Positions 26,490 through 51,469 of a stretch of 64,000 nucleotides of DNA are shown piece by piece; the stretch's first letter is position 1; each line of letters opens with the position of its first letter. The notes under the pieces are model-generated. The model was given only the letters and a program-made list of their open reading frames with translations, searched no databases and was not told the origin of the DNA. The position numbers and the translations under genes were made by a program. This stretch comes from Oscillospiraceae bacterium (lineage in GTDB: Bacteria > Bacillota > Clostridia > Oscillospirales > Acutalibacteraceae), in assembly GCA_031255515.1 (NCBI GenBank), contig JAIRSI010000063.1, forward strand, positions 1,239 through 65,238. Direction: 5' to 3'.

Positions 26490-26960
26490 TTAAATATTTC
26501 TCTTTTCTAAATCAAGCAAATATTTTTTGACGTGTAAGCCGAATGCGTATCCGACTAAAGAATTATTACTGCCCACAACTCGGTGGCAAGGAATTATTAT
26601 ACAAATAGGATTTTTATTATTTGCAAGACCAACAGCTCTGCAAGCTTTTGGTGAATTTATTTTTTCAGCAATCTCTTTATAAGTTTGAGTTTTACCATAA
26701 GGAATAAGTTTTAGAGCATCCCAAACTTTGTTTTGAAATTCTGTGCCTTTCATAGACAACGGTACATCAAAATTTTTTCTTTTACCTTTGAAATATTCTC
26801 TCAGTTGCTTTGAAGTTTCCAGGATTAACGCAGTTTCTTCTTCAATGTAATCATTAAAGCAATCCTTATTCTTAAAAGAAACTTCTGATATTCCAATACC
26901 ATCATCTGTAATACTTATCTCGCCTATATCATAAGAATAACGCCATATCTTTTTATCCAT
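26490..26960 (-). CDS. ogt: Methylated-DNA--protein-cysteine methyltransferase (Ogt/MGMT)
   Basis: TEFQNKVW, YGKTQTYKEIA and the IIPCHRVV active site. ATG 26960 is more likely than the TTG at 26987. Confidence 0.9.
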   Translation of the reverse strand: MDKKIWRYSYDIGEISITDDGIGISEVSFKNKDCFNDYIEEETALILETSKQLREYFKGKRKNFDVPLSMKGTEFQNKVWDALKLIPYGKTQTYKEIAEKINSPKACRAVGLANNKNPICIIIPCHRVVGSNNSLVGYAFGLHVKKYLLDLEKRNI

Positions 26961-27021
26961 ATTAAATATTCTCACCACATTGAGCAAAATAGGACTAACA
27001 GAATTTATTCGCTAAGTTTAT

Positions 27022-27732: not shown

Positions 27733-27743
27733 AGATTTATTTT

Positions 27744-28676: not shown

Positions 28677-28695
28677 AACAATTTCCTCGCTTTCA

Positions 28696-32359: not shown

Positions 32360-32433
32360 AAATTCTACTCTCCTTGAAAATGATTTTAGAATTAAACGTA
32401 ATTTGATAATATACGGACTTGTATGACTTTCTA

Positions 32434-32462
32434 ATGTTACGCTATCCTTTACACGATATCAA
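32434..32462 (-). promoter_or_regulatory. Possible internal sigma-A promoter ahead of the ABC exporter genes
   Basis: TTGATA-17 nt-TAACAT on the minus strand, inside the only sizeable (118 nt) gap in the operon. Confidence 0.3.
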
Positions 32463-32477
32463 ATCAAATATACACCA

Positions 32478-33350
32478 TTACATTACTTTTTCTTGTTGTG
32501 TTAATTTCTTGCTTAATGTACCCTTGCTTAACATAATGTTAAACACTGCTGATAATTGATTCGTTAAAAAATGATAAACGCCATTTTCATTATTATCAAA
32601 ATCCGTTACACAATCAGCCACATCTTTAGCTTCTTTCGCACCATTTATCATGCACACTCCCATTCCAGAGTTTTTTAATAATTCAATATCATTAATAGCA
32701 TCTCCAAAAGAAATAATATTTTCAATAACAATATCATTTTCTTCTGCAACACGCTGAACTGCTATCCACTTGTTAACAGATCCAACGGATATATCAATAA
32801 TATCGTCTCGGCCTCGCCATCCGCAGACAATGATATCATCAAATAATCGTATAACTTTATTTTGCAAGGCCTGTAGAAAATCCGGCGAAACACTAATTAT
32901 TATTCTTTGAACATCAAAAATCTTAGCTAATTTATATCCTATATGGAAAAACGGCAAATTGTGATTAACTATAATTTCATGAAGATACTCATTTTCATTT
33001 GTGAGCAGATATGTTTCATTGCATCGTGATAAAACCACATTGTTAATTTCATAATTTTTTTGATATTTAAGCAAAAACTCTAAAATACTTTCAGCATTGC
33101 TAATATTATTTTGATGTCTTACAATTCCGTTATTCGGATTACAAATAAGTCCTCCATTATGACAAATTAAATCATTTTCTAGATTAAGCACTTTATAATA
33201 CTGATACGCATCTGATACAGAGCGTCCTGTAGCAATGTAAACCACATGTTCTTTTTTGATAAAGTGAATCGCTTGCTGCAATTCATTTGATAGATTATAG
33301 GTATCTGTTATGCTTGTTCCATCTATATCTAATACTAACATCTTTCTCAT
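32478..33350 (-). CDS. HAD-IIB Cof-type phosphatase
   Basis: LVLDIDGT, ATGRS and FGDAINDIELL motifs. ATG 33350 is preceded by AAGGAGG. Confidence 0.85.
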   Translation of the reverse strand: MRKMLVLDIDGTSITDTYNLSNELQQAIHFIKKEHVVYIATGRSVSDAYQYYKVLNLENDLICHNGGLICNPNNGIVRHQNNISNAESILEFLLKYQKNYEINNVVLSRCNETYLLTNENEYLHEIIVNHNLPFFHIGYKLAKIFDVQRIIISVSPDFLQALQNKVIRLFDDIIVCGWRGRDDIIDISVGSVNKWIAVQRVAEENDIVIENIISFGDAINDIELLKNSGMGVCMINGAKEAKDVADCVTDFDNNENGVYHFLTNQLSAVFNIMLSKGTLSKKLTQQEKVM

Positions 33351-33369
33351 GACTAATTTTCCTCCTTTA

Positions 33370-33999
33370 TTATTTATCATTTTTTTCTATTACATAATGG
33401 TTAATAAAATCTGGGTGCCCAAATTTCTCCGAAAAACTTTCAAAAAACGGTATAGGTCTAATTATCTTGTATCTTTTTAATATCAAATTTTGTTTCGATA
33501 ATATGTAATTTTCTTTATCTATAAAACGCAAAAACTCATAAGATTTTTTTCTGTATTCAAGCTGATTTACTGGATTTAAAAGTTGCAACGAGGAAAGAAC
33601 ATCAAAATAGGCAATTTCATTCACTCCAAGATGTTGTGCCAAAAACATATCAAACAATTCTTCCTGTACACCAAATCCGAGTCTAAAACTACTATACGAT
33701 CTCGCGGGATATTGTGAGATATTTAAAAGTTTTTTTAATGCGTCTGGATCAATTGCATCTGGATATAAATATGGAAATAAATCAATAATAGAATCTTGAA
33801 TGTGAAAATCCGCATCTTTATTATTCCAAGACCATGTCTGTATTTTATCGCTAATCATTTTATCATCATATATAATTTTTCCAACTATTTGGAAACTATC
33901 TACACTCATAATTAATTTCTTACCAGATTGAACGAGACTGTTCAAAGTCTCTTTGATAAATGGAGATTCTATATTCCCAATAAACAATGTTTTACTCAT
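33370..33999 (-). CDS. Hypothetical protein (209 aa), no motif recognised
   Basis: Intact ORF whose start overlaps the stop of the upstream deaminase-like ORF. Confidence 0.5.
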   Translation of the reverse strand: MSKTLFIGNIESPFIKETLNSLVQSGKKLIMSVDSFQIVGKIIYDDKMISDKIQTWSWNNKDADFHIQDSIIDLFPYLYPDAIDPDALKKLLNISQYPARSYSSFRLGFGVQEELFDMFLAQHLGVNEIAYFDVLSSLQLLNPVNQLEYRKKSYEFLRFIDKENYILSKQNLILKRYKIIRPIPFFESFSEKFGHPDFINHYVIEKNDK

Positions 34000-34319
34000 A
34001 AATTATCACCAAGACTTGTGTTAGTTAAAAACTCACCTGTTTGATTGTTTTTGCCTGCTAAATAAAGCGTTGAACCTTGCGCGCCAGCTGGGGGAGCGTT
34101 CATAATAGCAGTCGCTTCTGCATGCTGTATGTTTTAATTATTATATTATTCCTGAATTTTAGACGCTTTGTTTATTTGCGCAATATGACTGTACCCTGTA
34201 TAAATAACTACACCGTCAAGAACTATAGCTACACCAAAGTTGATATGTGGACAATTGCCGTTATTCAATGCGGTTTCGGCAATATCTAAATAATAATCAA
34301 TTTTATCAATATAGTCCAA
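33996..34319 (-). pseudogene. CMP/dCMP (cytidine/deoxycytidylate) deaminase-like ORF interrupted by two in-frame TAA codons and lacking the PCxxC motif
   Basis: AGGAGG RBS plus TTG 34319. Reads DYYLDIAETALNNGNCPHINFGVAIVLDGVVIYTGYS ... KIQE*YNN*NIQHAEATAIMNA...GSTLYLAG. Stops at 34146-34148 and 34134-34136. The HAE zinc motif is present but no PCxxC follows. Confidence 0.5.
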
Positions 34320-34346
34320 ATCGTACCTCCTATAATCTAAAATGTT

Positions 34347-34994
34347 CTACCCTTCTTTATAATTAACTTGAGCGTCTTTTTCACCAATATCAAATATTTT
34401 TTTACTTACAATAAAATCAAATACAGGCATATGAATCTGAACTGAAGATATTCTTAATTTCCCGACTTCTTTGCATGATTCAGTGGCTACATTTAAATGA
34501 AGATAAGCCATTTGATGGTAGTCTAGCAATGCCATCCTAAATAAATTCATAGTTGAATAGTTTACATGCATATTAATAACGCCATCGGATACATCAAGAG
34601 CAATATTGCTTATACAAGGAGTTGGTACATTTTCTCTGTTATCTTTATTTGGGTCATATATAGGTATCACAATAGGTTTGATATTTTTTCTTTTTTTAAT
34701 AATTTTAATAGCATATTCATACTGATTAATTTGATTTGGGCCAAAGGAATAAAGACGATTTATTTCAGAATGCTTTCCGGGAGAAGTAATTTGAGATAAG
34801 TAATATTCACGGTTTCTCAGTTGCCATGGGCAAAAAGCACTTAACGTTGGTTCTACTGTATAGTTCTGTGCTTGAACTGTAAGGTTGTCCAAAAGTAAGT
34901 ATTCTTTTCCACACATGTTTCTTGAATAAGCATTATTAAGAAAGTATCTCATTGCTTCTTCCCAACATTTATTTATTGATGATTCAATAATCAT
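34347..34994 (-). CDS. Short divergent thymidylate-synthase-fold protein (TS-like 2)
   Basis: 215 aa. VPTPCISNIALDV...NYSTMNLFRMALLDY aligns without gaps to TS-like 1 from the catalytic Cys to the Asp. Cys and Asp are kept, but RSxD reads STxN. Confidence 0.55.
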   Translation of the reverse strand: MIIESSINKCWEEAMRYFLNNAYSRNMCGKEYLLLDNLTVQAQNYTVEPTLSAFCPWQLRNREYYLSQITSPGKHSEINRLYSFGPNQINQYEYAIKIIKKRKNIKPIVIPIYDPNKDNRENVPTPCISNIALDVSDGVINMHVNYSTMNLFRMALLDYHQMAYLHLNVATESCKEVGKLRISSVQIHMPVFDFIVSKKIFDIGEKDAQVNYKEG

Positions 34995-35039
34995 TACCTA
35001 CCTCCATCCAATTATTTATATATTTGTTTAATTAAGCAG

Positions 35040-35648
35040 CTAAACAATTCGTCTTGTCTCATATTCTCGAATGACATTGGCATACGCTTCACATATTTCT
35101 CTATTATTCTTGATAAGAATGGCTTTTTCATTTTCCATTGCATATTTACAATAAAGTTTTTTTAAGCGTCTCAAACAAAGGATATTTTCAAATTCGTTAG
35201 CTCCTCCTCTACTCTGAATTCGCTTTTCAATTAAATCCATTTCAGAATCAATTACAAATGTTAAATCTGGTTCAAGACACATGCTATAAACGATGTTGGT
35301 AAAATCATTTTCTGCTATCCAAACTTTAGCATATAGTTGTTGACATATTGCCCATCGATCTAAAATTATTACCTTATTAGAAGAATCCGAATCTTTAATA
35401 TCTTCAGAATTTTGTAATAAATCAAATCCCATAATATAAGACCCAATAACATTCAATTCATGTTTTTTATTTGGATATTTTTCAAAAAATTCTTTTCGTA
35501 CCATGTTATAGTTTTTTGCGAATGTAGTATCAGGTCGCAATGCTTTTATGATAGTTACTGTTTTGCCTGTTTGCTTTAGATACTCTGCAAATTTGGACAA
35601 TAATGTTGTTTTTCCGGTTCCATCAACTCCAACGAAGGCAATTATCAT
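35040..35648 (-). CDS. dTMP-kinase-like P-loop nucleoside monophosphate kinase
   Basis: IAFVGVDGTGKTT P-loop, VIILDRW, PDLTFVID and a LID-like RIQSRGG in thymidylate-kinase order. Confidence 0.7.
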   Translation of the reverse strand: MIIAFVGVDGTGKTTLLSKFAEYLKQTGKTVTIIKALRPDTTFAKNYNMVRKEFFEKYPNKKHELNVIGSYIMGFDLLQNSEDIKDSDSSNKVIILDRWAICQQLYAKVWIAENDFTNIVYSMCLEPDLTFVIDSEMDLIEKRIQSRGGANEFENILCLRRLKKLYCKYAMENEKAILIKNNREICEAYANVIREYETRRIV

Positions 35649-35662
35649 GCTAAAACTCCTTC

Positions 35663-36523
35663 CTATATATTTACATAATTTATCATTATAGGTTTATATT
35701 TATTTTTCATCCAATTTTCTCCACCATTGATTTTGGTCTCGTATTCTTGAAGAGAAATGTCTCCGAGTATAAATTTTTTAAAAAGAGACACTTCGGTAAA
35801 AGGATGTTTGTTGAAAAAAATCTGGTGGCTGCTGTTAACGTGATCTTTATAAAATCCCGAATTTCTTAAATGGGCGATATGTATATTTTCAGCTTTCTCG
35901 TTACTCATAAAAACTACATTATCTTTTTTCAGTCGGTAACCCAATTCAAAATGTTCAAATCCCCAAGATTTAAAATCACAATCAAATCGATGTTCGGCTA
36001 ATGTGGATTTCTTTAAAGCCATATTTCCTGACAATGTAGAAAGCCAACATAAATGACTGTCTGTTTTTCCAGATTCATCGTAAATTTGTGAAATAACTTT
36101 ATAATAAATGGATTTGCGTTTAATAATCTTTTCTGTATTTACCTTTAGCTTGTCAATGCTGTCATATGTTTCAGTTAAATATCCTATACTCAAAATAGCA
36201 TCCTGTGAATCAATTAAATTCATATGTGATTCTATAAAATTAGGAACAGGCAACCGATCACAATCACAAAAAATAATAAATTCGCCTTTGGAGATATCTA
36301 TAGCAATGTTTCTGGTATACGCCCGGCCTTTATTTGTTTTGTTCTTTATATATTTAATTTTTAATGAATTATAGTTGTTAATTACAGATGGTTCATAATC
36401 TAACGATCCATCATCGACAATAATAATTTCGAATGGTTCTGATGTGGTTTGTCTGCAAAAATGCCACAGTGTTGCATCTAAAGACGGATATTGATTGTAT
36501 ACAGGAATAATAACACTAATCAT
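35663..36523 (-). CDS. Glycosyltransferase family 2
   Basis: ISVIIPVYNQ, IIIVDDGS and a DCD (DxD) motif. Confidence 0.85.
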   Translation of the reverse strand: MISVIIPVYNQYPSLDATLWHFCRQTTSEPFEIIIVDDGSLDYEPSVINNYNSLKIKYIKNKTNKGRAYTRNIAIDISKGEFIIFCDCDRLPVPNFIESHMNLIDSQDAILSIGYLTETYDSIDKLKVNTEKIIKRKSIYYKVISQIYDESGKTDSHLCWLSTLSGNMALKKSTLAEHRFDCDFKSWGFEHFELGYRLKKDNVVFMSNEKAENIHIAHLRNSGFYKDHVNSSHQIFFNKHPFTEVSLFKKFILGDISLQEYETKINGGENWMKNKYKPIMINYVNI

Positions 36524-38054
36524 AACTAACCTCTTTTTCTGAAGTAATATTGTTAATTATGGCAATTACATCCTCAATTAATTTGTCACGAGTCTGTGCG
36601 GACATTGCTAATCCTTGTTTATCGTTTACATATTTAATTTTTTCGCCTATGCAATACTCTTCTTTATTTACAAACGCATATCCATTACACTCGTTAAGCA
36701 TTTGATTGATTTCAAACTCGGATAACTTTTTTAAAAAATCAGTTGACAAATTAATGCCTTTACTCCTATTTAGGATATTTCCAAGGATGCAACATTCATA
36801 CTCAGCCCACGCATAATTATCGTAAAGATCACTTGTATCAATTACCGAAACCAACTTATCACTATTCGATAAATAGTTCCATATGTTACTCTTTTCTGGA
36901 AATAGCATTATTTTATGATCAAAAATTTCCTTATTGGCAAATAATAAATAATTGCTAAAACCCGAAGCGACACCGATTACTTTTGCGTTAGGTGCTCTTT
37001 TTTTAAGGTAGTTAGCAACAAACAATAATATTTCTTGCGTGGAATCATATGCTAAATCTTCACTTTTCCCATCGCTGTCTCCAGATGACGGAAAATCAAA
37101 CATGCAAATATTGTATTCTTTGTGAAGTATATTGGCCATTTGAGTAAACAAAAATCCCGGACCTGATTTATTTTGAAATAATCCGTGTAAAAACAAAATA
37201 TAAGTTGATGACTGTCCTGTTTCTACTAATTTTAAGCAAATACGATTTTCCCCTGTGTGTAAAAAAAATTCTTGCCTTTTTGGAGATATAAGGTTAATTT
37301 TTTTATGATGCCACTGAACTAAAAGATCACTTAAATTTTGAACCCATACATGTTTTGTATATAGGTGATCTGCGTGTGATATTATTTCGTGTGGCCATTT
37401 TTTCTGAATCCAGAAATCTCTGCTGTTTTTTGATGTGTCATCGTTTGCAGAATATATTCCAAAATAGTCAACTTGCTCATCTAAATTACATTTATCAATA
37501 AAATATTCCTTGTACTTTTCCACCACACTCCAATTAATCCATGTTCCAAGATTACTATCATAAACCATGTTTCCATTTTTTATTTTTGGACGACTTATTT
37601 TATCCAGGTATGATTCTTCAACACACAATCCATTACATGACAAAATAGCAGCAATGTCATTTCGTTTACTTGCAGCGTGAAATGCAAACTTCAATCCTTC
37701 GCTAAATCCTACATAAATAACTTTATTTATAAAACCAAATGAATTTAAAAATTGACTCGTAATTTCATCTAATTGAATAATAAATGAATCAAAATCATTT
37801 TCTGAATAATTTCCAAAATTGCTACCACCACCCAAAAAATCAAAACGTAAAACTGAAAATCCATTCATACTTAAATTTCTGGCAATTCGTGTAAACATAG
37901 CACGCGAATCACCACGATCACCAAATATTCCAGGTATTATAATCGTTACGTATGGATTTGATAAATCGAATGTAGTATGCAAAACAGCATTTATTGTTTC
38001 AGATTTATAATTAAAAGCCAAATTTATTTCATTTGTTCGTTCATTCATTAGCAT
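36516..38054 (-). CDS. Tandem double alpha/beta-hydrolase-fold protein
   Basis: Two ~250-aa halves. The first has GFSEG (GxSxG). The second has LFLHG...DFPSSGDSDG but only GVASG at the nucleophile elbow. Confidence 0.65.
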   Translation of the reverse strand: MLMNERTNEINLAFNYKSETINAVLHTTFDLSNPYVTIIIPGIFGDRGDSRAMFTRIARNLSMNGFSVLRFDFLGGGSNFGNYSENDFDSFIIQLDEITSQFLNSFGFINKVIYVGFSEGLKFAFHAASKRNDIAAILSCNGLCVEESYLDKISRPKIKNGNMVYDSNLGTWINWSVVEKYKEYFIDKCNLDEQVDYFGIYSANDDTSKNSRDFWIQKKWPHEIISHADHLYTKHVWVQNLSDLLVQWHHKKINLISPKRQEFFLHTGENRICLKLVETGQSSTYILFLHGLFQNKSGPGFLFTQMANILHKEYNICMFDFPSSGDSDGKSEDLAYDSTQEILLFVANYLKKRAPNAKVIGVASGFSNYLLFANKEIFDHKIMLFPEKSNIWNYLSNSDKLVSVIDTSDLYDNYAWAEYECCILGNILNRSKGINLSTDFLKKLSEFEINQMLNECNGYAFVNKEEYCIGEKIKYVNDKQGLAMSAQTRDKLIEDVIAIINNITSEKEVSYD

Positions 38055-38274
38055 ATTTATTCACCATGCTTAAAATAGAGTTTACTGACGACATGTTTTC
38101 TACAGTTAAATCATTATCATCAATTTCGATACCTAGCTTATCTTCAACAATTGTAACAAGTTTCAGTACACCTAAAGAATCTAAACCATGATTAAACGGA
38201 TTAATAGAATAATTATGTATTTTAGTTCCAATAACTTCTTCAATAATTTTGACAATTTCCTCAGCATTAGACAT
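38041..38274 (-). CDS. Free-standing acyl/peptidyl carrier protein (CP3)
   Basis: 77 aa with GLDSLGVLKLV phosphopantetheine Ser motif. Confidence 0.85.
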   Translation of the reverse strand: MSNAEEIVKIIEEVIGTKIHNYSINPFNHGLDSLGVLKLVTIVEDKLGIEIDDNDLTVENMSSVNSILSMVNKYANE

Positions 38275-39219
38275 TTAATCACCTTCCTGCATTAATGCAT
38301 TTAAATTTTTTGAGCATATTACACGTACAAGCATTAATAAATATTCTTTCATACTTGGCATTCTTATTAAAAACCTAATATTTTCAGCATGCCTGATTAA
38401 ATCAATTACGCAATGTACTTGCATATAATAATGTATTTTTTTTTCAATATCTGTTGGGGATGTATTCTCATAATAACTATTGATAAATGCTTTTATTTGT
38501 TGAAGCCTTCCTGGGTGCACTTCAAACTTTTTTGACCCAGAATACATAAAAGATAGAACTGTATTTGCAACATCCTCGATAGAATCTCCGTAACGTATAG
38601 TATCAAAATCAATTAAACATACCTCTTCGTCGTTTAAGATCATGTTTTCCAAGATAGTATCACCATGTATAACAGTCTGGTTACTGTTGGAGTAGTTATC
38701 AATAATATTGTATAGATTTTCTTTGCATGAAAGAATTTCTTGTTTGATTGAATAAGAACCATTATTGAAATTCAAAAAAAGGTCTTTAGCGCTATTTAAT
38801 TTTTCTTCAGTACTAATCAAATCAGGAAGTAGCTTAGATGTAGCAACGCCATGATATTTTTTTAAACAATTTGCTATTTCTTTATACTGGTTTATAGAAG
38901 GACGATTCCCTTTAATATACTCAAAAACAACACAATATCTGTTTTCTAAACTGATATGAAATTCGTCTGAATCTAGCCTTCGTAATGGGCATCCTATTGA
39001 AATACCTAATTCTCGTAGTTTCCAGTAATATCCCCACATTTGAAATAACTCTTTTAATGAAAAAGTTTCTGCGTAATCTTTCACTATGTACTGATTACCG
39101 TCAAAAGTGTTTACTAAAAAGCTTTGACGGAACATTAGCCTGTCAATTATTTTTACATCTATGATTTTTAATCCATAGTATTTATTGAGACTCTCTATCA
39201 GTTGCTGCCATGTGAACAT
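38275..39219 (-). CDS. APH/choline-kinase-fold phosphotransferase
   Basis: VIHGDTILENMI (HxDxxxxN) and LIDFD motifs. Confidence 0.8.
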   Translation of the reverse strand: MFTWQQLIESLNKYYGLKIIDVKIIDRLMFRQSFLVNTFDGNQYIVKDYAETFSLKELFQMWGYYWKLRELGISIGCPLRRLDSDEFHISLENRYCVVFEYIKGNRPSINQYKEIANCLKKYHGVATSKLLPDLISTEEKLNSAKDLFLNFNNGSYSIKQEILSCKENLYNIIDNYSNSNQTVIHGDTILENMILNDEEVCLIDFDTIRYGDSIEDVANTVLSFMYSGSKKFEVHPGRLQQIKAFINSYYENTSPTDIEKKIHYYMQVHCVIDLIRHAENIRFLIRMPSMKEYLLMLVRVICSKNLNALMQEGD

Positions 39220-39223
39220 ACTT

Positions 39224-40087
39224 TCAGTCCTTTATATTATGTGTTGTGTAACTTTTATTTTTCAAAACTTCAACAAATTGTTTCCAATAAGAATTTAATA
39301 AGCTAATATTTTGTACAGTCTCATTTTTTCTGAGTGCGCGTTCTGTTTCTAATATCAAAGATATCTGTTCGCTATTGACAGATTCAATTGTCATGCTAGG
39401 CATACTTTGATTATCAGCATCTTTAGTTTTTTTAAGACAATCAAAAATATTGAAATTTCTTTCGTATATGTGTAAGCTGCCTACCATGTGGGTATATGAA
39501 CCCAATTCAACATTCAACTCTATTGCTAACATTTCTTGTAGCATAGTAAAACTAAAAATATCATAAGGCATGCCAAGATATATATCATTAGAGCGCATGT
39601 ATGTAACAGCATTTAACTGCTTATTACGAATGAAATATTGCAGAACACATGTACACGGTATATCTAACGAAGATGCAAACAAATCACGCGGTTGATATAT
39701 TGATATTACAGCTTGCCTTGAATCAGGGTCTTTAGATAAAATATTCTTAACCCATTCCCATTGGGAAAGCTTACCTCCGAATATTCTTGTACCATATGCA
39801 CCGTTAACAGTAATTTTATCATCAGAAAAATTAGGATATATTTTACTGTAGTACTCCATAATATTTAGTCTGTCGCTTCCTCTTAGATACCAAAGAAATT
39901 CACCGAAAGCAAACGATAAACTCATTTTTCGGACAGAATTATTCGTAATCCTATCTCTTGGATTTTTTATGGAAAACGAAACACCTAAACATTCTTTTAT
40001 TTTCATTCCACGTGGACTGGACTCGAATGCAGATTTTAATTGGTTCACATGATATATGAACGCTTCGTTTACATTTTTAAAAATCAT
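39224..40087 (-). CDS. Thymidylate-synthase-fold pyrimidine-nucleotide C5 (hydroxy)methylase with Asp specificity signature (TS-like 1)
   Basis: AFGEFLWYLRGSD, catalytic Cys in DIPCTCVLQYF, and MRSNDIYLGMPYDIFSF (canonical PFN replaced by PYD). ATG 40087 overlaps the upstream TGA (ATGA). Confidence 0.8.
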   Translation of the reverse strand: MIFKNVNEAFIYHVNQLKSAFESSPRGMKIKECLGVSFSIKNPRDRITNNSVRKMSLSFAFGEFLWYLRGSDRLNIMEYYSKIYPNFSDDKITVNGAYGTRIFGGKLSQWEWVKNILSKDPDSRQAVISIYQPRDLFASSLDIPCTCVLQYFIRNKQLNAVTYMRSNDIYLGMPYDIFSFTMLQEMLAIELNVELGSYTHMVGSLHIYERNFNIFDCLKKTKDADNQSMPSMTIESVNSEQISLILETERALRKNETVQNISLLNSYWKQFVEVLKNKSYTTHNIKD

Positions 40088-41577
40088 AATGTCACCCCAT
40101 CTGTAAATCGTTTGGTCTTGCCGTTGTATGTTCTGCAAATATTTTTCACAAAATTAAAGCATTTTGGAATTTTGTAATTGCTTAAATTTTTCGAGCAAAC
40201 AGATTTAAGTTGCTGAATGATTTCCACATTATCAGAATTTGATACAATGTCTGCATGAACTACTTCGCCAAGCAAATCATCGTTAACTCCATATACTTTT
40301 ACATCCATGATACCCGGGTAAGTTGAAATCACTTCTTCTACTTCCTCAGGACATATGTTTTGTCCTCCAGAAATAATTATATTTTTCTTTCTACCAACTA
40401 AATACAAATATCCATCTTCTGAAAGATATCCTATATCTCCCGTATATAGCCACTCACCACGTATTATAGCTTTTGTTTCTTCTATACATTTGAAGTATCC
40501 TTTCATGATTCCCTTACTTTTCACAATTACTTCTCCTGTTACACCTTTTGGAAGCGGCGATCCAAGAGTATCAACAATTTTTATTTCGACTTTAGGAATC
40601 GCACATCCTACAGAACCAATTTTTTCGATATATTGAGAAGGAGGCAATGTTGTAACCCGTGGACCTGCTTCGGTTAATCCATATGTTTGGACAAAAGCAA
40701 TTGACGGGAACTTTTTTATAATATCTAGTAATTGAGACTTTGGAATTGGATTGCCTCCAAAACATATTATTTTTAACGATGAGATATTATAAGATAACAG
40801 TTCACTATTGCATAAAGCGATCAAAATTGTAGGCACCGCAGTAAAATTTGTAATACTCCACTTTTCTATTATTTTATAGAAATCAGCCACCATAAATGGG
40901 TTTGGGTTAATCACAATGCAAGCACCTAAGTATACATGTGCTAAAAATTGGGCTGTATTGCAATACCCAAACATCATAGGAAGCTGTATCAAACAAACTT
41001 CATTAACATCAAACTTTAATGATTCACAATGGGATTTAATATTACTCAATAGCCCTTGATTGGTTAGCATAACTCGTTTTGATTTTGATGTTGTTCCAGA
41101 TGTATGCAATAGAACCACAACATCGTCAAGCTCATTTTCATTAAGAACGGTTGAAGAAACACTATTGGTATATAATTTAATATTTCTTTGAATCTCAGCA
41201 CAATCATTTATTACAATGAGGTTCATATGAAGCTTATTTGTATGTACTAATGCTTCAATCATGGGAAAATATACTTCTGTTGTTATTAAAGTAAAAATCT
41301 CACAGTGTTTTATTGTATCTAATAATTCATTCATTGTAGTACTTGTATGAAATGGTGCAATTACCTTGTCCGCATAAAGACAAGCAAAATAACTAATAGC
41401 ATATTCAATACCATTTGGTAAAAATAACCCTACTATTTTTTCATGTTTGTCTTTTAATGCTTCATTACTAAGTTTATCAGAAAGCTGATGCCATTGCTTG
41501 TATCCCAGTGCAATCTCTCCACACACAATGGCGATCTTATCAGATTCTTTAAGCCTTATCAAAAGATTGCAAACCAT
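40084..41577 (-). CDS. ANL-family adenylating enzyme (acyl-CoA/acyl-carrier-protein ligase)
   Basis: HTSGTTSKSKRV, QTYGLTEAG, YTGDIGYL..GRKKNIIISGGQNI and a C-terminal NGKTKR. Confidence 0.85.
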   Translation of the reverse strand: MVCNLLIRLKESDKIAIVCGEIALGYKQWHQLSDKLSNEALKDKHEKIVGLFLPNGIEYAISYFACLYADKVIAPFHTSTTMNELLDTIKHCEIFTLITTEVYFPMIEALVHTNKLHMNLIVINDCAEIQRNIKLYTNSVSSTVLNENELDDVVVLLHTSGTTSKSKRVMLTNQGLLSNIKSHCESLKFDVNEVCLIQLPMMFGYCNTAQFLAHVYLGACIVINPNPFMVADFYKIIEKWSITNFTAVPTILIALCNSELLSYNISSLKIICFGGNPIPKSQLLDIIKKFPSIAFVQTYGLTEAGPRVTTLPPSQYIEKIGSVGCAIPKVEIKIVDTLGSPLPKGVTGEVIVKSKGIMKGYFKCIEETKAIIRGEWLYTGDIGYLSEDGYLYLVGRKKNIIISGGQNICPEEVEEVISTYPGIMDVKVYGVNDDLLGEVVHADIVSNSDNVEIIQQLKSVCSKNLSNYKIPKCFNFVKNICRTYNGKTKRFTDGVTL

Positions 41578-41580
41578 AAT

Positions 41581-43869
41581 TCACCTCATTTTTATTGTTT
41601 TTTTAGAATTATTTATATAATCATCCGTGAGTTTCTCAATAGCTTTTCTGTCTATTTTCCCGTTAGGGGTTATAGGTATAGCACTTGTCAGTATAATGTG
41701 CGCCGGAACGTGACTTTTTGGTAACCATTTTATAAGATGATCAATTAATTCAGTTTCTTTAGGTATACTTCGTTTTGATTTATACTCAGCATGCACTACT
41801 ATTTTCCTACTAGTTCCAACTTTTGGAGCAGTTGCAACGACTCGGTTAATACCTTCACAATTTGACAGACAGTGCTCTATTTCTCCTAACTCTATTCTCG
41901 CACCGTTTATTTTAACTTGGAAATCCATTCTACCTAATAAAATGAGGTTTCCATCTGGTTTAAAATAAGCTAAATCTCCTGTTTTATATATCCGTTGTTT
42001 TGGATCATCAGCCCAAGGATTATCAAAGAAACGTTCCATTGTGGCTTCGGGGTTCAAATAATACCCATCACCAACACCTACTCCACCTAGGTACAATTCT
42101 CCGGGAAAACCAATTGGCATTAATTGTCTATTTCTATCTAATACATATGCTTTTTGATTGTACATAGGTTTCCCATAAGGAATTCTTTTCCAATCTGGAT
42201 TAACTTGTTCAATTTGATAAATTATTGAATCCATGGAAACTTCGGTGGCACCACCAAGGCTAATCATTGTTGATTGATTATTTATCAAGCGAAAATTATC
42301 CGGTAAAGATAATGGTATCCAATCGCCACCTAACAAAACTACTCTAATAGAATCAGCTCTCATCAATTTTCGATGCTGTGCACATTTACAAAAAAGATCC
42401 AACAAAACTGGAACAGAATGCCATATTGTAACATTATATTTTTGTATTAAATCAAGCCAGTGAAATGGCTGTTTTTCTAACAATGGATCTGGTAAAACAA
42501 TGCTACTTCCTGCCATCATACTACCTAAAACATCGTATGCACTCATGTCAAAACTAACTGATGAGATGGCTAGCACCTTATCCTTATTTGTGATTGAAAA
42601 GCGTGAATTAAAATCGTGAAAATTACTAACACGACCTTCGTGATTCAACAATACTCCTTTGGGTTGACCCGTTGAACCAGAAGTATATATCAGGTAACAT
42701 GGATCGCGCGGACTAACATTAATATTAGGACTGTCAACAGGATAATCTAATAACTCTTCGTCTTCAGAATTAATTTTTACGATTTTAATGTTGGTCATCA
42801 TTGTATAATTATCCCCTGGGTCTACTGCAGTAACTACAACAGATACTTTCGAGTTGGCAAGAATGTATTCAATGCGGGATTGCGGATAAGACGCATCAAT
42901 TGGCAAGTAAGCACATCCAGCCTTCAATATACCCATAATTCCGATTACAAAATTAATGGATTTGTTGGAATATAGGGCAACTATGTCGCCTGTCTTTACT
43001 CCAGATTGAACTAATTGGTGCGCTAATTGGTTAGCTCGCTTATTCAGCATTTCTCTCGTCATGGTTTTATTTTCATAATACACCGCTATAGCATTAGAAT
43101 CTTCCAAAACTCTTTGCTCGAATAATTGATGAATGCAACGTTCTTTTGGGAATTTAAAATCAGTTTGATTCCAAATATCTACTAAAGTTTCCTTTTCATC
43201 TTTACTTATATAATGTGCTTTACAGATCAATATATCGGAGTCTTCCATTACGCAAGACGACAATTGATCGTAGTGCAACGCCATACGACGAATGTGTTCT
43301 TCTGAATATGCATTTTTGTTATATATAATATTTAGAACAATCTTTTCATTTATATTAACAATCTGAAAACATATATCTGTTTTAATATTATTTTGATCAA
43401 TATTTATTTGAAAATCCAAGGAGTTGGTGTATTCAAATAAACAATTAGTATAATCTGATGTTTTTTCTAAAACAGAATTTAGCAGTTCTTGCTCAAAGGT
43501 AAATACCATTTTCTCCTTAACTATAAGTTTTATTAAATCATTGAAGGTTAATTCATTGTCACACAATGTACTTGCAATAAAAACAGATGAATCTTTGTTA
43601 AAATTCTGTAGACAAATACCTGTTAACATTTCGTTTTGAGTATACCGCATCATCAAAGATAAAAATACACCGAAAAAATAATCTTGTGGGCTAGGATATT
43701 TTTCGATTTTATTTTTAACTTGCGGATTTAACGAATACTGATAAATTGCATAATTTTTATTATTAATGACTTTAGGTGATGTACTTTTGTATAATTCAAA
43801 ATAACCATCCAAATACTTATCAAGTTTGTTTTCTATTTTTTCAATAATAACATTATTGCCTTTACTCAT
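41581..43869 (-). CDS. NRPS adenylation protein with N-terminal truncated condensation-like region and no carrier domain
   Basis: A3 YTSGSTGQPKG, A4 FDMSAYD, A5 SLGGATE, A6 GELYLGGVGVGDGY, A7 YKTGD, A8 GRMDFQVKINGARIELGEIE, A10 PNGKIDRK. About 250 N-terminal aa lack HHxxxDG. Confidence 0.9.
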   Translation of the reverse strand: MSKGNNVIIEKIENKLDKYLDGYFELYKSTSPKVINNKNYAIYQYSLNPQVKNKIEKYPSPQDYFFGVFLSLMMRYTQNEMLTGICLQNFNKDSSVFIASTLCDNELTFNDLIKLIVKEKMVFTFEQELLNSVLEKTSDYTNCLFEYTNSLDFQINIDQNNIKTDICFQIVNINEKIVLNIIYNKNAYSEEHIRRMALHYDQLSSCVMEDSDILICKAHYISKDEKETLVDIWNQTDFKFPKERCIHQLFEQRVLEDSNAIAVYYENKTMTREMLNKRANQLAHQLVQSGVKTGDIVALYSNKSINFVIGIMGILKAGCAYLPIDASYPQSRIEYILANSKVSVVVTAVDPGDNYTMMTNIKIVKINSEDEELLDYPVDSPNINVSPRDPCYLIYTSGSTGQPKGVLLNHEGRVSNFHDFNSRFSITNKDKVLAISSVSFDMSAYDVLGSMMAGSSIVLPDPLLEKQPFHWLDLIQKYNVTIWHSVPVLLDLFCKCAQHRKLMRADSIRVVLLGGDWIPLSLPDNFRLINNQSTMISLGGATEVSMDSIIYQIEQVNPDWKRIPYGKPMYNQKAYVLDRNRQLMPIGFPGELYLGGVGVGDGYYLNPEATMERFFDNPWADDPKQRIYKTGDLAYFKPDGNLILLGRMDFQVKINGARIELGEIEHCLSNCEGINRVVATAPKVGTSRKIVVHAEYKSKRSIPKETELIDHLIKWLPKSHVPAHIILTSAIPITPNGKIDRKAIEKLTDDYINNSKKTIKMR

Positions 43870-43887
43870 ATAAGTCACTTCCTTTGT

Positions 43888-45252
43888 TTAATAGTTTGTT
43901 TCATATCCAGGTATAGGATATTCCTTACATAATTCACTAACTTTATGTAGCACATCAGACTTAACAGTATCATCAATTTTGAAATCTTCTAAATTATCGC
44001 CATGTATGTGGTTCAGAACATCAGCAATTATATAAGCGCATTTTTTTACAGCATCGGCTGACATTTTTCTTTGTGCCATATTATTTGTACCAATACGAAT
44101 ACCGGCTGGTCTTTTTGATGTATTTTTACCGTTTATCTTTTTATTTGGAACACTATTTCTATTAACAATAATTCCGCATTCTTCAAGTGCCCTTTCAGCA
44201 ACATCACCGCTAATATTTTTACTGGCAAGATCGACAAGTACTATATGATTATCTGTGCCACCAGAAATAACGTCAAAACCTATATTTTGTAAGTGTTCGG
44301 CAAGTATTTTAGCGCTGTCAACTATCCGCTGCATTGTTTTTTTGAATCCTTCTGATGCGGCTATGTCAAATGAAATTGCTTTAGCTGCAATTTGGTTCAT
44401 TATTGGTGCACCCTGAAAAAATGGAAATACTGCTTTTTGTAGTTTCTCCTCCAATGTCATATCCTCATCAAATAACTTTCTCTTAGCATCTTTGCCAGAT
44501 AAAATTAAACCGCCTCTTGGTCCAGCAAGTTGTTTATGAGTACATGTTGTTGTTATATGCGCATAATCAATAGGTGACTCATGCAAATCTGCGATTACTA
44601 AACCAGCTATGTGTGATATATCGGCTAACAAATATGCTCCTACTTTATCAGCGATTTCTCTAAAGCGCTTAAAATCGATTTTTCGGCAATATGCAGTCGT
44701 GCCACATATAATCATTTTTGGGCGATGCTGTAATGCCAGTTCCTCAATCTTGTCGTAGTCAATAAGATAATTTTCATCTAATCCATAACGAACAACTTGA
44801 AAATCAGATCCTGAATAAGATACTGAAGCACCATGAGTTAAGTGCCCACCTGACGTTAAATTCATTCCCATTATTAAGCCACCTGGTCTGACTAAGGAAT
44901 ATGTAACAATTTCATTTGCCGTTGTAGCTGAATGTGACTGGACATTTGCATAAGCGGCTTTAAATATTTTTTTGGCATTTGAAATTGCCAATTCTTCAAT
45001 TTTATCCATTTCTTCGCACCCAGCATGGTATCTTACATGAGGATACCCTTCGGCTGTTATATTAACTGCAGGCATGCCCGTACATGCAAGAACGCTTGGC
45101 GGAACAATGCTGCAAGACGCCACCATCATTAATACAGATTTTTGTCTTTGATATTCTCTTTCTAAAACTTTCATGAAACTTGGATTTATTTCTTTAATTT
45201 GCTCAACACCATACGCTAAAAGCTCTGATAGATTTTTTGATGAATTACCCAT
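43888..45252 (-). CDS. Serine hydroxymethyltransferase-fold PLP enzyme (divergent GlyA paralogue)
   Basis: GGHLTHG, TTTCTHKQLAGPRGG (PLP Lys), VNRNSVP and AEGYP. ATG 45252 is preceded by GAGGAG. LIASEN reads MVASCS and RYYGG reads RYHAG. Confidence 0.85.
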   Translation of the reverse strand: MGNSSKNLSELLAYGVEQIKEINPSFMKVLEREYQRQKSVLMMVASCSIVPPSVLACTGMPAVNITAEGYPHVRYHAGCEEMDKIEELAISNAKKIFKAAYANVQSHSATTANEIVTYSLVRPGGLIMGMNLTSGGHLTHGASVSYSGSDFQVVRYGLDENYLIDYDKIEELALQHRPKMIICGTTAYCRKIDFKRFREIADKVGAYLLADISHIAGLVIADLHESPIDYAHITTTCTHKQLAGPRGGLILSGKDAKRKLFDEDMTLEEKLQKAVFPFFQGAPIMNQIAAKAISFDIAASEGFKKTMQRIVDSAKILAEHLQNIGFDVISGGTDNHIVLVDLASKNISGDVAERALEECGIIVNRNSVPNKKINGKNTSKRPAGIRIGTNNMAQRKMSADAVKKCAYIIADVLNHIHGDNLEDFKIDDTVKSDVLHKVSELCKEYPIPGYETNY

Positions 45253-45253
45253 A

Positions 45254-45514
45254 TTATTTCTCCTCACTATGTGTTTTTGTTTTTTCAAGCATTTGCTCTA
45301 TTATAGAGACCAACTGACCTATAGTTTTGTAATTATCATAAACTAATTGTGTATCTTCAAACCTAATATTAAATTCTTCTTCTAATGCAATTATCATTGT
45401 TATAAATTCAACTGAATCAATTCCGATTTCCAGAAGAGAAGTATCATCGTTAATAACAGCAGAATGGCTCACGTTTCGTTTTATTACATCATATATTGTT
45501 TCTTTCATTATCAT
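45254..45514 (-). CDS. Free-standing acyl/peptidyl carrier protein (CP2)
   Basis: 86 aa with IGIDSVEFITMI Ser motif. Confidence 0.8.
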   Translation of the reverse strand: MIMKETIYDVIKRNVSHSAVINDDTSLLEIGIDSVEFITMIIALEEEFNIRFEDTQLVYDNYKTIGQLVSIIEQMLEKTKTHSEEK

Positions 45515-46476
45515 TATACGCCTCCTATTTTATTTGATAGCACTATATTTATTGCTTGTCTTTCAATATCTGCAATCTGTGTTATCATTTTAGATATTGT
45601 TCCTCTATCGTTGTTTATTGAATTAGTTATATACGTTTTTAGTAGTTTTCCTTTTGCGGTTTTCCATAAAGTTACACTTTGTCTTAATAAATTCGAAGCC
45701 TCTTTTAAGTATTTTAATTTGAATAACTTATATATATAATCCAGCATACATATATAGGCATCACGGTACATTGCAACTTTTCTTATTTTGTCTAAGATTG
45801 GAACGGTTTGTAGATCATTTTTGAATTCATCAAATTCATAATTAATATCCATTTTAGTGCAAATATCACTCGCTAATTGTCTAATATTTGTGTCATTTTC
45901 ATTATCTTGATTTACTGTAATTATATCTTCTTGAATGACTTTGATATAATTTTCCATACTGTTTTTCTTAGGTAATTCTAAAAATATTAACTTAGCATAT
46001 TTGTTAATGCCAGAGTATAAATCTTCTCTTGGTATATTATATTTAGCATATTGGAAATAAGGATCAATACAAATATAAGTTTCAGTTTTAAAGTCATATT
46101 CGCTAATAATAATATAATGTGAAAAATGATATTTTTGATATGCTGTTGAACCTTTTAAATAATACAGATCAAAGCTTCCTATAGATGGATATGTAAATTC
46201 TTCAAAGTGTTCTTGATTATTGAAGCGACCATCTTCTAGTATCTCTACTTCCCAAGTAAATCCGTGAAATTGCCCAGCCCTATCAGAAGCATCGATTTGA
46301 TTGATAATATCGATTCGTTCACCTACTCTTTTATTACTTTCAGCGACATCATACTTTAGTTTCCAGTCACTACTCGATATCATATGGTAGTCTCGACCAT
46401 AATATTTAGCTAAAGTAGCAATAACTGCAAGAAAGCAATTATAAACGCCTACATTTTTAATATGTTCAAATATCAT
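45514..46476 (-). CDS. BtrH_N-like (papain/C39-fold) putative carrier-protein-dependent transferase, copy 1
   Basis: N-terminal Cys motif YNCFLAVIATLAKYYG, later HFSHYIIISEYD. ATG 46476 is preceded by GAGGTG (ORF track GTG at 46485). Confidence 0.45.
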   Translation of the reverse strand: MIFEHIKNVGVYNCFLAVIATLAKYYGRDYHMISSSDWKLKYDVAESNKRVGERIDIINQIDASDRAGQFHGFTWEVEILEDGRFNNQEHFEEFTYPSIGSFDLYYLKGSTAYQKYHFSHYIIISEYDFKTETYICIDPYFQYAKYNIPREDLYSGINKYAKLIFLELPKKNSMENYIKVIQEDIITVNQDNENDTNIRQLASDICTKMDINYEFDEFKNDLQTVPILDKIRKVAMYRDAYICMLDYIYKLFKLKYLKEASNLLRQSVTLWKTAKGKLLKTYITNSINNDRGTISKMITQIADIERQAINIVLSNKIGGV

Positions 46477-46503
46477 AGTCAACACCTCTCTTCACTCATA
46501 AAA

Positions 46504-47592
46504 TCACATGCCTTCAAAGGCTTTACCTTGAGCTATTTTAAATTTCATTTCTTCATCAAAATATTTATCAAATAAACTGTCTCTATCAATACAGAAAAGT
46601 CTTTCCATAAAGCTATTTTTCCAAATAAAATGTCCTTCATTATCTAGTCCAAAACTATTCAAAAACTCTTCATTCGGTACTTGCAAACCAGTAATAGTTA
46701 ATAAAGAATCATCTCGAAAGACAAATGCTGTATAATATAAAACGTACATAATGTATCTCTCAACTTTATAATTAATGCAAATCGATCGAAACTTTTCCCA
46801 AGAAATTTTAGACCGTTTAATAAATCCGTAAATATCAGCAAAATATTTCAATCTATACGCATAAATTTTATAAAGCACATATACAGAATTCATATCAAAG
46901 TATGCATGTAAGCACATGTGCAGAAACATATATTCATCCTGAAATGTTTTAACTTTAAAACCTTTATAATCAACTATCTGCGAATTGTCAATCAATTTTG
47001 ATGTGTCCCAGGAATCACTTTCATTCCAAAAAATATTAAAATTTAAATCCAAGTTCACTACCGGCACTAGCTCATTACCAGTTTCTTTTAAAAAAGGAGC
47101 TGATTGCTGTGTATATGAGAGATAGAACAATTCTTGTTGTCGGGAAAAATTTTTAATTGTTTTTGTTGTTGGATCGTAAACTCCTTGTTTATATCCATAA
47201 TTATCAAGAATATTTTTTACTTTTGAATAATCTTCACGTTTTATGATAACATCTAAATCATCGGAACGCCTATAACTTTCATCGATATAAGCAGTTTTAG
47301 CTGCATATATCCCCTTGGTGGTAACATAATCTATGTTGGATTTTTTGAATTCATCTGCAGCTGGATCAAAATGAATAAAATTTTCGTGGTATCTTTTTAA
47401 ATTCTTTTGTTTTGATATTTGATTAGCTAAACGATGATTTCTATCAAGCTGCATTGCATCACTAATTAGCAAACCTACATCGTGTTGGTGAGCAAGTTCT
47501 AACAATGGCTCATTTTGAGGATATTGTGATGGCATAGATTCGTTACAAAAACATGTTCTCAACATTTCCAATAATAAATTTTGCAATACCAT
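46504..47592 (-). CDS. Uncharacterised nucleotidyltransferase family protein (NTP_transf_5-like)
   Basis: KGIYAA...YRRSDDLDVIIKRED..V..L...GY, VNLDLNFNIFW and LHMCLHAYFD, as in the PF14907 pattern. Confidence 0.55.
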   Translation of the reverse strand: MVLQNLLLEMLRTCFCNESMPSQYPQNEPLLELAHQHDVGLLISDAMQLDRNHRLANQISKQKNLKRYHENFIHFDPAADEFKKSNIDYVTTKGIYAAKTAYIDESYRRSDDLDVIIKREDYSKVKNILDNYGYKQGVYDPTTKTIKNFSRQQELFYLSYTQQSAPFLKETGNELVPVVNLDLNFNIFWNESDSWDTSKLIDNSQIVDYKGFKVKTFQDEYMFLHMCLHAYFDMNSVYVLYKIYAYRLKYFADIYGFIKRSKISWEKFRSICINYKVERYIMYVLYYTAFVFRDDSLLTITGLQVPNEEFLNSFGLDNEGHFIWKNSFMERLFCIDRDSLFDKYFDEEMKFKIAQGKAFEGM

Positions 47593-47638
47593 ATATCCAT
47601 CTCCTGGAACTAATTTTGTATTATAATCATCTTAAAAC

Positions 47639-49558: not shown

Positions 49559-49839
49559 TTGCTTTCTCCTTTACTGCAGTAATTGTTTAGTAAAGCAAAT
49601 AACTTTGTAAAAGTATTAAGTTTTTCAATTAGCAAATCCTCATCTTTAAGAGAAAAATTGTACTTTTCTTCAAACATAACAACTAATTGAATGCAAGAAA
49701 TAGACGTCATTCCGTGTGCCATCAAATCTTCATCTTCTTTTATATTTTTTACATTTTCAATGTCAACACCTAAAAGTTTTGATATCATTTTATAAACATC
49801 ATTTTTACATATCTTCATTAAACATTCCCTGCCTTTCAT
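49555..49839 (-). CDS. Free-standing carrier protein (CP1)
   Basis: 94-aa ORF (the start may be ATG 49818) with HGMTSISCIQLV in carrier-protein helix II context. Its stop overlaps the carbamoyltransferase ATG. Confidence 0.65.
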   Translation of the reverse strand: MKGRECLMKICKNDVYKMISKLLGVDIENVKNIKEDEDLMAHGMTSISCIQLVVMFEEKYNFSLKDEDLLIEKLNTFTKLFALLNNYCSKGESK

Positions 49840-49868
49840 AAAATCATTTATATTTTGTAGCTACCGAA

Positions 49869-51431: not shown

Positions 51432-51469
51432 AAAAATCCCCATTCCTGTTTTAATTTAACCGTGAATCA

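Follow-up and report, generated by a model that had tools for sequence, protein, structure and literature searches.

What does a protein with the fold of thymidylate synthase (TS) do among genes for adenylation enzymes and carrier proteins? This question is raised by the minus-strand open reading frame (ORF) at positions 39224..40087 of a 64,000-nucleotide stretch, hereafter called the window, of contig JAIRSI010000063.1 from an Oscillospiraceae bacterium. An initial annotation, made by reading the sequence, had proposed a cytosine-nucleotide C5 (hydroxy)methylase rather than ThyA, the canonical thymidylate synthase. The analysis described below indicates that this TS-like protein is very likely a cytosine-nucleotide C5-hydroxymethylase. 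Its preferred substrate is predicted, with less assurance, to be dCMP, and the favoured explanation overall, held with moderate confidence, is a folate-dependent, TS-fold C5-hydroxymethylase for which dCMP would be the likeliest cytosine-nucleotide substrate. Enzymes of this class are already known. What is new is the conserved cluster around the gene and the use of a deoxy-type enzyme within it.

The ORF begins with ATG and encodes 287 amino acids. Its translation holds AFGEFLWYLRGSD, SLDIPCTCVLQYF, MRSNDIYLGMPYDIFSF and DSRQ, identical to the motifs quoted in the initial annotation, which were all present. Start and stop codons overlap as ATGA where the ORF follows the upstream adenylation-enzyme gene, which ends with TGA, and a GGGGTG sequence lies 7-12 nt before the ATG; the start coordinate given at the outset is therefore correct, and this arrangement suggests that the two genes are probably translationally coupled. 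The TS fold is recovered by the Pfam thymidylate synthase family (PF00303, E=8.5e-31). The ThyA equivalog models of NCBIfam, the cut-offs of which range from 108 to 576 bits, are on the other hand never satisfied: the query obtains at most 95 bits, this top score facing a 327-bit cut-off, and TIGR03284 returns 89.8 bits against 108.35. A search of all PDB sequences places MilA, the CMP 5-hydroxymethylase of the mildiomycin pathway of Streptomyces rimofaciens (PDB 5jnh/5b6d), at the top (E=1.6e-48), the best genuine ThyA reaching about 1e-19. The same ranking is obtained at the structural level. The AlphaFold2 model, for which 34 homologues were used, reaches a mean pLDDT of 93.6 and, in Foldseek, its closest fold is that of MilA (TM 0.90), the ThyA structures remaining at TM 0.60-0.67. 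Sequence identity to the query amounts to 37% for MilA, 35% for gp319 of Bacillus phage G, 29% for gp42, the dCMP hydroxymethylase of phage T4, and 21% for E. coli ThyA. Judged by its sequence, the 287-aa protein is thus not a ThyA, even if its database homologues carry the name "thymidylate synthase". What is directly established comprises the fold, the identity of the residues, membership of the clade, and the gene neighbourhood and its conservation.

The active site was examined by aligning the query with 120 listed database homologues, E. coli ThyA (264 aa), T4 gp42, MilA and phage G gp319, using HMMER, MAFFT and profile methods. The T4 gp42 residues, taken from the T4 genome (C148, D179, S169, R123 and D145), agree with the numbering of the literature. 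All three alignments place Cys145 (codon 39653..39655, (-)) in the column of the catalytic nucleophile, Cys146 in E. coli and Cys148 in T4, as had been proposed. They also place Asp176 (codon 39560..39562, (-)) in the column of E. coli Asn177, T4 Asp179 and MilA Asp186. The Asn to Asp change at the position which distinguishes cytosine from uracil (PMC5175136, PMC8670742), on which the initial annotation was built, is therefore located where it was claimed to be. This Asp is found in 120 of the 120 listed homologues and is consequently a feature of the family rather than an accidental substitution. Several other residues of the E. coli enzyme are kept in the query, namely E63 (E58), Y98 (Y94), R165 (R166), D168 (D169), H206 (H207) and Y208 (Y209). 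T146 replaces His147. The SRQ motif, read at first as a variant of the SRR phosphate motif, aligns indeed with E. coli Ser-Arg126-Arg127; its Arg124-Gln125 codons (39713..39718, (-)) correspond to Lys133-Arg134 of MilA, and the second Arg is changed. In the Arg165-Ser166-Asn167-Asp168 segment (codons 39584..39595, (-)), which matches E. coli R166-S167-x-D169, Ser166 is kept where MilA has Ala176. Finally, Asp142 (codon 39662..39664, (-)), three residues before the Cys, replaces E. coli Leu143 and constitutes the hydroxymethylase, or water-access, signature (PMC13326640). The corresponding query motifs read LDIPC and MRSND at positions 143 and 169.

A residue census was performed on 120 family sequences, the query and 119 homologues, one homologue devoid of the Cys being excluded. 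An Asp three residues before the Cys was found in 114 of these sequences, the Asp169 equivalent in 119 and the Thr147 equivalent in 115. T4 gp42 and MilA, tabulated apart, share the Asp at the -3 site, the Asp in the Asn177 column and the Thr in the His147 column. The five T4 gp42 residues Asp179, Cys148, Asp145, Arg123' and Ser169 are all identical in the query (5/5). The Lys133'/Ala176 pair of MilA is replaced by Arg124/Ser166 in the query and in nearly the whole clade, a MilA-like Lys/Ala pair being limited to a few homologues (P0076, P0080, P0105 and P0111, of which P0080 and P0105 belong to Streptomyces). ThyA Trp80 and Trp83 correspond to Tyr and Phe in the query; Trp80 was envisaged as a means of telling methylases from hydroxymethylases and was abandoned, T4 gp42 retaining a Trp at this position.

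Published work allows these residues to be read. Zhao et al. (2016, PMC5175136) reported that MilA Asp186, the Asn177 equivalent, is common to cytosine-specific enzymes. Positions 177 and 147 were found in viromes to be the two best columns separating cytosine-modifying TS homologues from ThyA (Yang et al. 2021, PMC8670742). The presence of D176 together with T146 thus indicates a cytosine substrate. A 2026 paper in Nucleic Acids Research on 5-hydroxycytosine (PMC13326640) described the replacement of ThyA Leu143 by Asp or Glu in hydroxymethylases, MilA included, and D169N as the mark of 5-hydroxy-dCMP synthases. The combination of D142 with a retained D168 therefore indicates a hydroxymethylase and counts against both a methylase and a 5-hydroxylase. 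A 5-hydroxycytosine synthase is ruled out on the latter ground, the Asp169 equivalent being retained. As for the sugar, the ribose pocket contains Lys133'/Ala176 in MilA and BcmA, as opposed to Arg/Ser in deoxy-specific TS and in T4 gp42, and a MilA A176S/K133R double mutant loses its CMP activity and retains activity on dCMP (PMC5175136). The deoxy-type pair Arg124/Ser166 accordingly favours dCMP over CMP. The initial annotation had left the substrate as CMP or dCMP and the product as methyl or hydroxymethyl, considering that neither the sugar nor the product could be read by eye. Both proposals hold and are narrowed here, to probably dCMP and to hydroxymethylation respectively, the published determinants allowing a prediction in each case. 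Taken from three papers, the residue code formed by positions 177, 147, 143, 169, 126 and 167 sorts the family cleanly and tracks the gene context.

The phylogeny is in keeping with this assignment. In a neighbour-joining tree (285 trimmed columns, 100 bootstraps), the three ThyA sequences included (E. coli, SPbeta and NotTheCreek) fall outside an Asp-type clade which contains the query and is supported at 100%. The comparison with ThyA, T4 gp42 and MilA recommended by the initial annotation therefore shows an Asp in the Asn177 column and no clustering inside ThyA. This clade takes in T4 gp42, but also the TS of Salmonella phage SeSz-1, in which the Asn is kept at position 177. The query is grouped at 100% with its close relatives (P0002-P0024) and at 87% with a sister set (P0027-P0033). 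The Lys/Ala enzymes of the MilA type form a separate branch.

The gene belongs to a co-directional cluster, all on the minus strand, which extends from a B12-radical SAM gene to a phosphopantetheinyl transferase (PPTase) gene (27022..51443, (-)). This block of about 25 kb has a GC content of about 30%, and the flanks, which include DnaK, ClpB and MurG on this 66-kb contig of an Oscillospiraceae metagenome-assembled genome (MAG), have about 40%. In order, the block comprises genes for the B12-radical SAM protein, a carrier protein (PCP), a TobZ/NodU-type carbamoyltransferase, an NTP_transf_5 protein, a 323-aa ORF weakly matched by BtrH_N, DUF4872 and C39, a PCP and serine hydroxymethyltransferase (SHMT). 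A 765-aa protein with a partial condensation and an adenylation (A) domain, a 497-aa adenylating enzyme, the TS-like protein, an APH-fold kinase and a PCP, the third of the cluster, come next. They are followed by a 512-aa double alpha/beta-hydrolase, a GT2 glycosyltransferase, a dTMP-kinase-like (TMK) protein, a 215-aa second TS-fold protein (TS2), a deaminase pseudogene and a 209-aa ORF. The last genes are those of a Cof-type HAD phosphatase, two ABC exporters, a 335-aa unknown ORF, an Sfp-type PPTase and O6-methylguanine-DNA methyltransferase (MGMT). The cluster resembles those of nonribosomal peptide synthetases (NRPS) in its composition, and a literature search for a characterised cluster of this kind found none.

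The SHMT gene (43888..45288, (-); PF00464, E=6e-123; NF000586, 463 bits for a 335-bit cut-off) is kept in all the syntenic clusters, and its likely role is the regeneration of 5,10-methylene-tetrahydrofolate (methylene-THF) for the hydroxymethylase. The dTMP-kinase-like P-loop protein (35040..35648, (-); PF02223, E=2.7e-15), which matches bacterial thymidylate kinases of the PDB over its full length (E~1e-13), could be the enzyme that phosphorylates the hydroxymethylated (d)NMP, and its gene is kept beside TS homologues in other Firmicutes loci. Together with the pocket residues, this partner leads to the prediction that the enzyme probably prefers dCMP. The APH-fold kinase (38275..39219, (-); PF01636, E=1.9e-12), directly downstream of the TS-like gene, could have a biosynthetic or a self-resistance role. 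The same three genes (TS, APH and TMK) are found together again in loci of Clostridia and Streptococcus.

The same gene order is observed in Bacillus/Paenibacillus sp. FJAT-27264, the TS-like protein of which is 75% identical to the query, in a Lachnoclostridium MAG and in three metagenome contigs. Reduced versions, made of adenylation-enzyme, TS-like, APH, PCP and double-hydrolase genes, occur in Lacrimispora, where GT2 and TMK are present too, in Robertmurraya kyonggiensis, which also has GT2, and in Lysinibacillus, which has neither. Within the query clade, the TS-like gene is always embedded among adenylation-enzyme, carrier-protein, hydrolase and GT2 genes accompanied by exporters. The window version differs from the others by the gain of the carbamoyltransferase, by the loss of function of the deaminase, present as a pseudogene, and by the lack of a small radical-SAM gene.

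The family extends well beyond this cluster. Relatives were found at no fewer than 486 loci in many phyla, with one genome per species, and the neighbours were clustered for the best 80. In 52 of these 80 loci, which represent the wider Arg/Ser family, an aGPT-Pplase3/ADDT gene (PF18746, E=2e-105) comes directly after the TS homologue. Genes for an HTH-M78 peptidase and a small ORF are recurrent beside this pair, and an Mrr-like nuclease or a second TS paralog is present in some loci. The resulting TS(Asp)-ADDT island (loci L009, L011, L013, L025, L028, L044 and about 46 others), with one or two TS and sometimes an Mrr-like nuclease or a DUF4031 protein, is spread over Proteobacteria, Bacteroidota and Acidobacteriota; Paraburkholderia xenovorans LB400 is one of its carriers. 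It has the appearance of a system for the hypermodification of cytosine in DNA, belonging to cellular genomes or to prophages. In Clostridia, six loci (L010, L014, L015, L019, L023 and L029) carry a compact cassette composed of MazG, APH, TS(Asp), TMK and an unknown protein of 230 aa, which by analogy resembles the dCTPase, hydroxymethylase and dNMP-kinase logic of phage T4. Three others (L012, L017 and L018, from Oceanobacillus and Streptococcus mitis) combine TS, TMK and APH in another order, without MazG and with two TS paralogs. The two Lys/Ala homologues examined (P0080 and P0076) adjoin instead genes for a MilB/BcmB-like PF05014 N-glycosidase and a ThiD-like kinase, which is a bacimethrin- or hydroxymethylpyrimidine (HMP)-like arrangement, and the query's Arg/Ser clade is paired with dTMP-kinase-like genes. 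From sequence, Lys/Ala thus appears to go with base release from a ribonucleotide, and Arg/Ser with (deoxy)nucleotide kinases or DNA modification. This agreement between pocket residues and gene context supports dCMP as the substrate and does not prove it.

The query can be situated with respect to four known systems. With MilA it shares the TS fold, the same C-terminal helical extension, the catalytic Cys, Glu, His and Tyr, and the Asp, Thr and Asp found at the Asn177, His147 and Leu143 positions. MilA, its bacimethrin counterpart BcmA and the query all reside in secondary-metabolite-type clusters. The two former enzymes differ from it by the Lys133'/Ala176 pair favouring CMP, where the query has Arg124/Ser166 and a Gln for the second Arg, and the query belongs to a well-supported clade apart from MilA. 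T4 gp42, in which the counterparts of the key residues are identical, is similarly partnered with a dNMP/dTMP-kinase-like gene. It is however shorter (246 aa), lacks the C-terminal extension, has Arg-Arg instead of Arg-Gln and serves, alongside a dCTPase and glucosyltransferases, to make precursors of phage DNA, unlike the query in its NRPS-like cluster. Phage G gp319 and the TS(Asp)-ADDT family display the R-Q, S, D and D(-3) signature of the query at 35-40% identity, and are, like it, uncharacterised members of one large Asp-bearing superclade; their neighbours are ADDT, an Mrr-like nuclease, a deaminase and an alpha-glucosyltransferase, in contrast to the adenylation and carrier-protein genes of the query. 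Finally, the 5-hydroxy-dCMP synthases of phages RB69, DLP3 and RL38J1 (PMC13326640) have the TS fold, the Asp at position 177 and an acidic Leu143 equivalent in common with the query. They are distinguished by D169N, as in RB69 gp48, the query retaining Asp168 and TS2 having an Asn in that column.

By homology with T4 gp42 and MilA, the reaction would begin with the addition of Cys145 to C6 of the cytosine ring, which Asp176 would orient and protonate. C5 would then attack the iminium form of 5,10-methylene-THF, and the elimination of tetrahydrofolate (THF) would leave an exocyclic methylene. Water let in by Asp142, which stands for the hydrophobic Leu143 of ThyA, would add to this methylene to give 5-hydroxymethyl-(d)CMP and THF. 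Such a reaction would make no dihydrofolate, and the SHMT of the cluster would recharge THF to methylene-THF from serine. The presence of SHMT, with no dihydrofolate reductase (DHFR) found among the cluster ORFs scanned, supports a hydroxymethyl product. The hydroxymethyl nucleotide would be the first committed intermediate of the conserved Firmicutes NRPS-like cluster. Judging from domain content, it might later be phosphorylated by the dTMP-kinase-like and/or the APH-fold kinase, glycosylated by the GT2 enzyme, and aminoacylated, the adenylation enzymes and carrier proteins acting together with the hydrolase or with BtrH-like transferases. In the window version, O-carbamoylation of the hydroxymethyl group could perhaps be added. 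Removal of phosphate by the HAD enzyme and export through the ABC transporters would come last. We infer the substrate, the product, all these downstream steps and the nature of the final metabolite from the sequences.

Several other explanations have to be weighed against this one. An ordinary thymidylate synthase converting dUMP to dTMP, present in the island by chance, could be invoked from the database name of the homologues and from the Pfam domain. The Asp, Thr and Asp at positions 177, 147 and 143 speak against it, and canonical ThyA is ruled out by the scores below every NCBIfam cut-off, the 21% identity and the position outside the ThyA branch, so that its probability is negligible. 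A (d)CMP C5-methyltransferase, which would use TS-type hydride transfer to produce 5-methyl-(d)CMP as in enzymes of the phage XP12 type, is only slightly less remote: Asn to Asp mutants of ThyA do methylate dCMP (cited in PMC8670742), and Asp176 taken alone cannot tell methyl from hydroxymethyl. This alternative is nevertheless most improbable given the Asp at the Leu143 equivalent, the Tyr and Phe in place of Trp80 and Trp83, the exclusive presence of hydroxymethylases among the nearest characterised relatives, and an SHMT with no DHFR among the cluster ORFs. A third possibility, the supply of 5-hydroxymethyl-dCTP for the DNA of the host or of a mobile element, in restriction evasion or defence, with the NRPS-like genes functionally separate, deserves more attention while remaining decidedly unlikely. 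It draws on the frequent linkage of the wider Arg/Ser/Asp family with aGPT-Pplase3/ADDT, Mrr-like nucleases, MazG and dNMP-kinase-like genes, on the R-Q/S/D signature of phage G gp319, and on the island's foreign GC content beside a tRNA-Ala gene. Yet the gene is always embedded, and translationally coupled, among adenylation-enzyme, carrier, hydrolase, GT2 and exporter genes, and no dCTPase/MazG, DNA polymerase, ADDT or phage structural gene was detected among the island ORFs scanned. PADLOC returned no match for the TS-like, APH-fold, TS2, 209-aa, HAD, GT2 and NTP_transf_5 proteins or for two unknown proteins, the TMK-like kinase alone giving a weak, generic P-loop match; a known anti-phage defence system was rejected on this result. 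A role in a small-molecule pathway is favoured over DNA modification.

The most serious competitor of dCMP hydroxymethylation is a CMP 5-hydroxymethylase of the MilA/BcmA type, leading to 5-hydroxymethyl-CMP or free 5-hydroxymethylcytosine for a peptidyl-nucleoside antibiotic. MilA is the nearest solved protein in both sequence and fold, C-terminal helical extension included, and an NRPS-like cluster equipped with a GT2 enzyme, exporters and a PPTase is reminiscent of nucleoside-antibiotic clusters. The two positions that give MilA its preference for CMP are however occupied by Arg and Ser in the query and nearly all its clade, the conserved kinase partner belongs to the dTMP-kinase family, and no PF05014 N-glycosidase, which adjoins the Lys/Ala-type homologues examined, was found among the island ORFs scanned. 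This explanation is accordingly considered rather unlikely. A number of points weigh nonetheless against dCMP hydroxymethylation as the basis of a metabolite pathway. MilA, the nearest characterised enzyme, prefers CMP and belongs to a secondary-metabolite cluster, so that by analogy the context alone would favour a ribonucleotide. The Arg/Ser rule derives from one mutagenesis study and five aligned enzymes, and the rule linking the Asp143 equivalent to hydroxymethylation is correlative. In the query, a Gln replaces the second phosphate-binding Arg (E. coli R127), which might affect the binding of sugar or phosphate. The start of the SHMT gene is overlapped by a PCP gene, so that this enzyme could serve instead to tailor an amino acid bound to a carrier. 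A MilB-like N-glycosidase was also sought in the unknown ORFs with Pfam, NCBIfam and the PDB and none appeared, and the failure of the literature search mentioned above belongs to the same side of the balance.

The cluster encodes a second, highly diverged TS-fold paralog, TS2 (215 aa, 34347..34994, (-); TIGR03283, E=1.9e-8; PDB 9iqu, E=1.7e-4), located four genes downstream of the TS-like gene. An hhalign comparison with the TS-like family gives a probability of 88% and E=2.9e-6. TS2 keeps the Cys (VPTPCISN) and an Asp in the Asn177 column, has Ser, Thr and Asn in the R166, S167 and D169 columns, and is devoid of the Arg126/127 pair and of Glu58. Its top PDB match, 9iqu/9iqc, likewise has an Asn in the D169 column. 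It is conserved in four orthologous clusters and in every full copy of the cluster. In the tree it joins MilA on a very long branch, a pairing treated as long-branch attraction and not used as evidence. The neighbouring dCMP/CMP deaminase pseudogene (34023-34319, (-)), which over residues 1-101 shares 46% identity with its counterpart in the Paenibacillus cluster, contains two in-frame stops and has lost the C-terminal zinc-ligand region; the Paenibacillus copy is intact. The TobZ/NodU-type carbamoyltransferase (47639-49558, (-); phrog_1601, E=2e-80) was absent from all 80 related loci and is present solely in the cluster version of the window. A virome-derived carbamoyltransferase of this family, paired with TS homologues, makes 5-carbamoyloxymethylcytosine, acting on 5-hydroxymethyl-2'-deoxycytidine (5hmdC) in DNA and also on 5hmdCTP and 5hmCTP (PMC8670742). 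By analogy, the enzyme of the window might carbamoylate the hydroxymethyl group.

Other members of the island are more difficult to place. The top PDB match of the GT2 protein is the GT2 domain of chondroitin synthase. ORFs 45514-46485 (-) and 27744-28751 (-) have weak matches to BtrH_N, DUF4872 and peptidase C39, and may encode BtrH-like acyltransferases from carrier protein to amine. The 209-aa ORF (33370-33999, (-)) defines a family of 29 database proteins restricted to the present cluster type, the contigs of which match those of the TS-like orthologs where comparable; its AlphaFold2 model (pLDDT 83) gave no significant match among PDB folds (best E=8e-3, TM<0.4). At the edge of the island, the MGMT gene (26490-26987, (-), 31% GC) could provide self-protection against a DNA-directed product, and a 46%-identical homologue was observed in an unrelated Clostridia MAG, close to its TS-APH-TMK cassette (locus L019). 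A tRNA-Ala(CGC) gene (52895-52970, (-)) lies directly upstream of the cluster. Together with a block of 30% GC in a 40%-GC chromosome (26-52 kb), it suggests a horizontally acquired island. A search for an att-type direct repeat of this tRNA at the far border returned only a 14-nt AT-rich chance match.

From its gene content, the cluster looks like a modified-nucleoside natural-product pathway of gut and soil Firmicutes. It may be proposed, tentatively, that an NRPS-like cluster has recruited chemistry of the phage DNA-modification type, in the form of a deoxy-type dCMP hydroxymethylase, a dNMP-kinase-like enzyme, an APH-fold kinase and a degenerate TS paralog, for an aminoacylated and/or glycosylated, possibly O-carbamoylated, metabolite of 5-hydroxymethyl-2'-deoxycytidine. 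If true, no earlier natural-product pathway would have had a 2'-deoxy pyrimidine hydroxymethylase as its foundation. Bacillus/Paenibacillus sp. FJAT-27264 is a cultivable host of the same cluster. The query and hundreds of relatives labelled as thymidylate synthases are almost certainly cytosine-nucleotide hydroxymethylases, and metabolic reconstructions which count them as ThyA are wrong. Should the deoxy prediction hold, phage-style DNA-precursor chemistry would be tied to small-molecule biosynthesis in gut and soil Firmicutes, and a new class of modified deoxynucleoside metabolites would be indicated.

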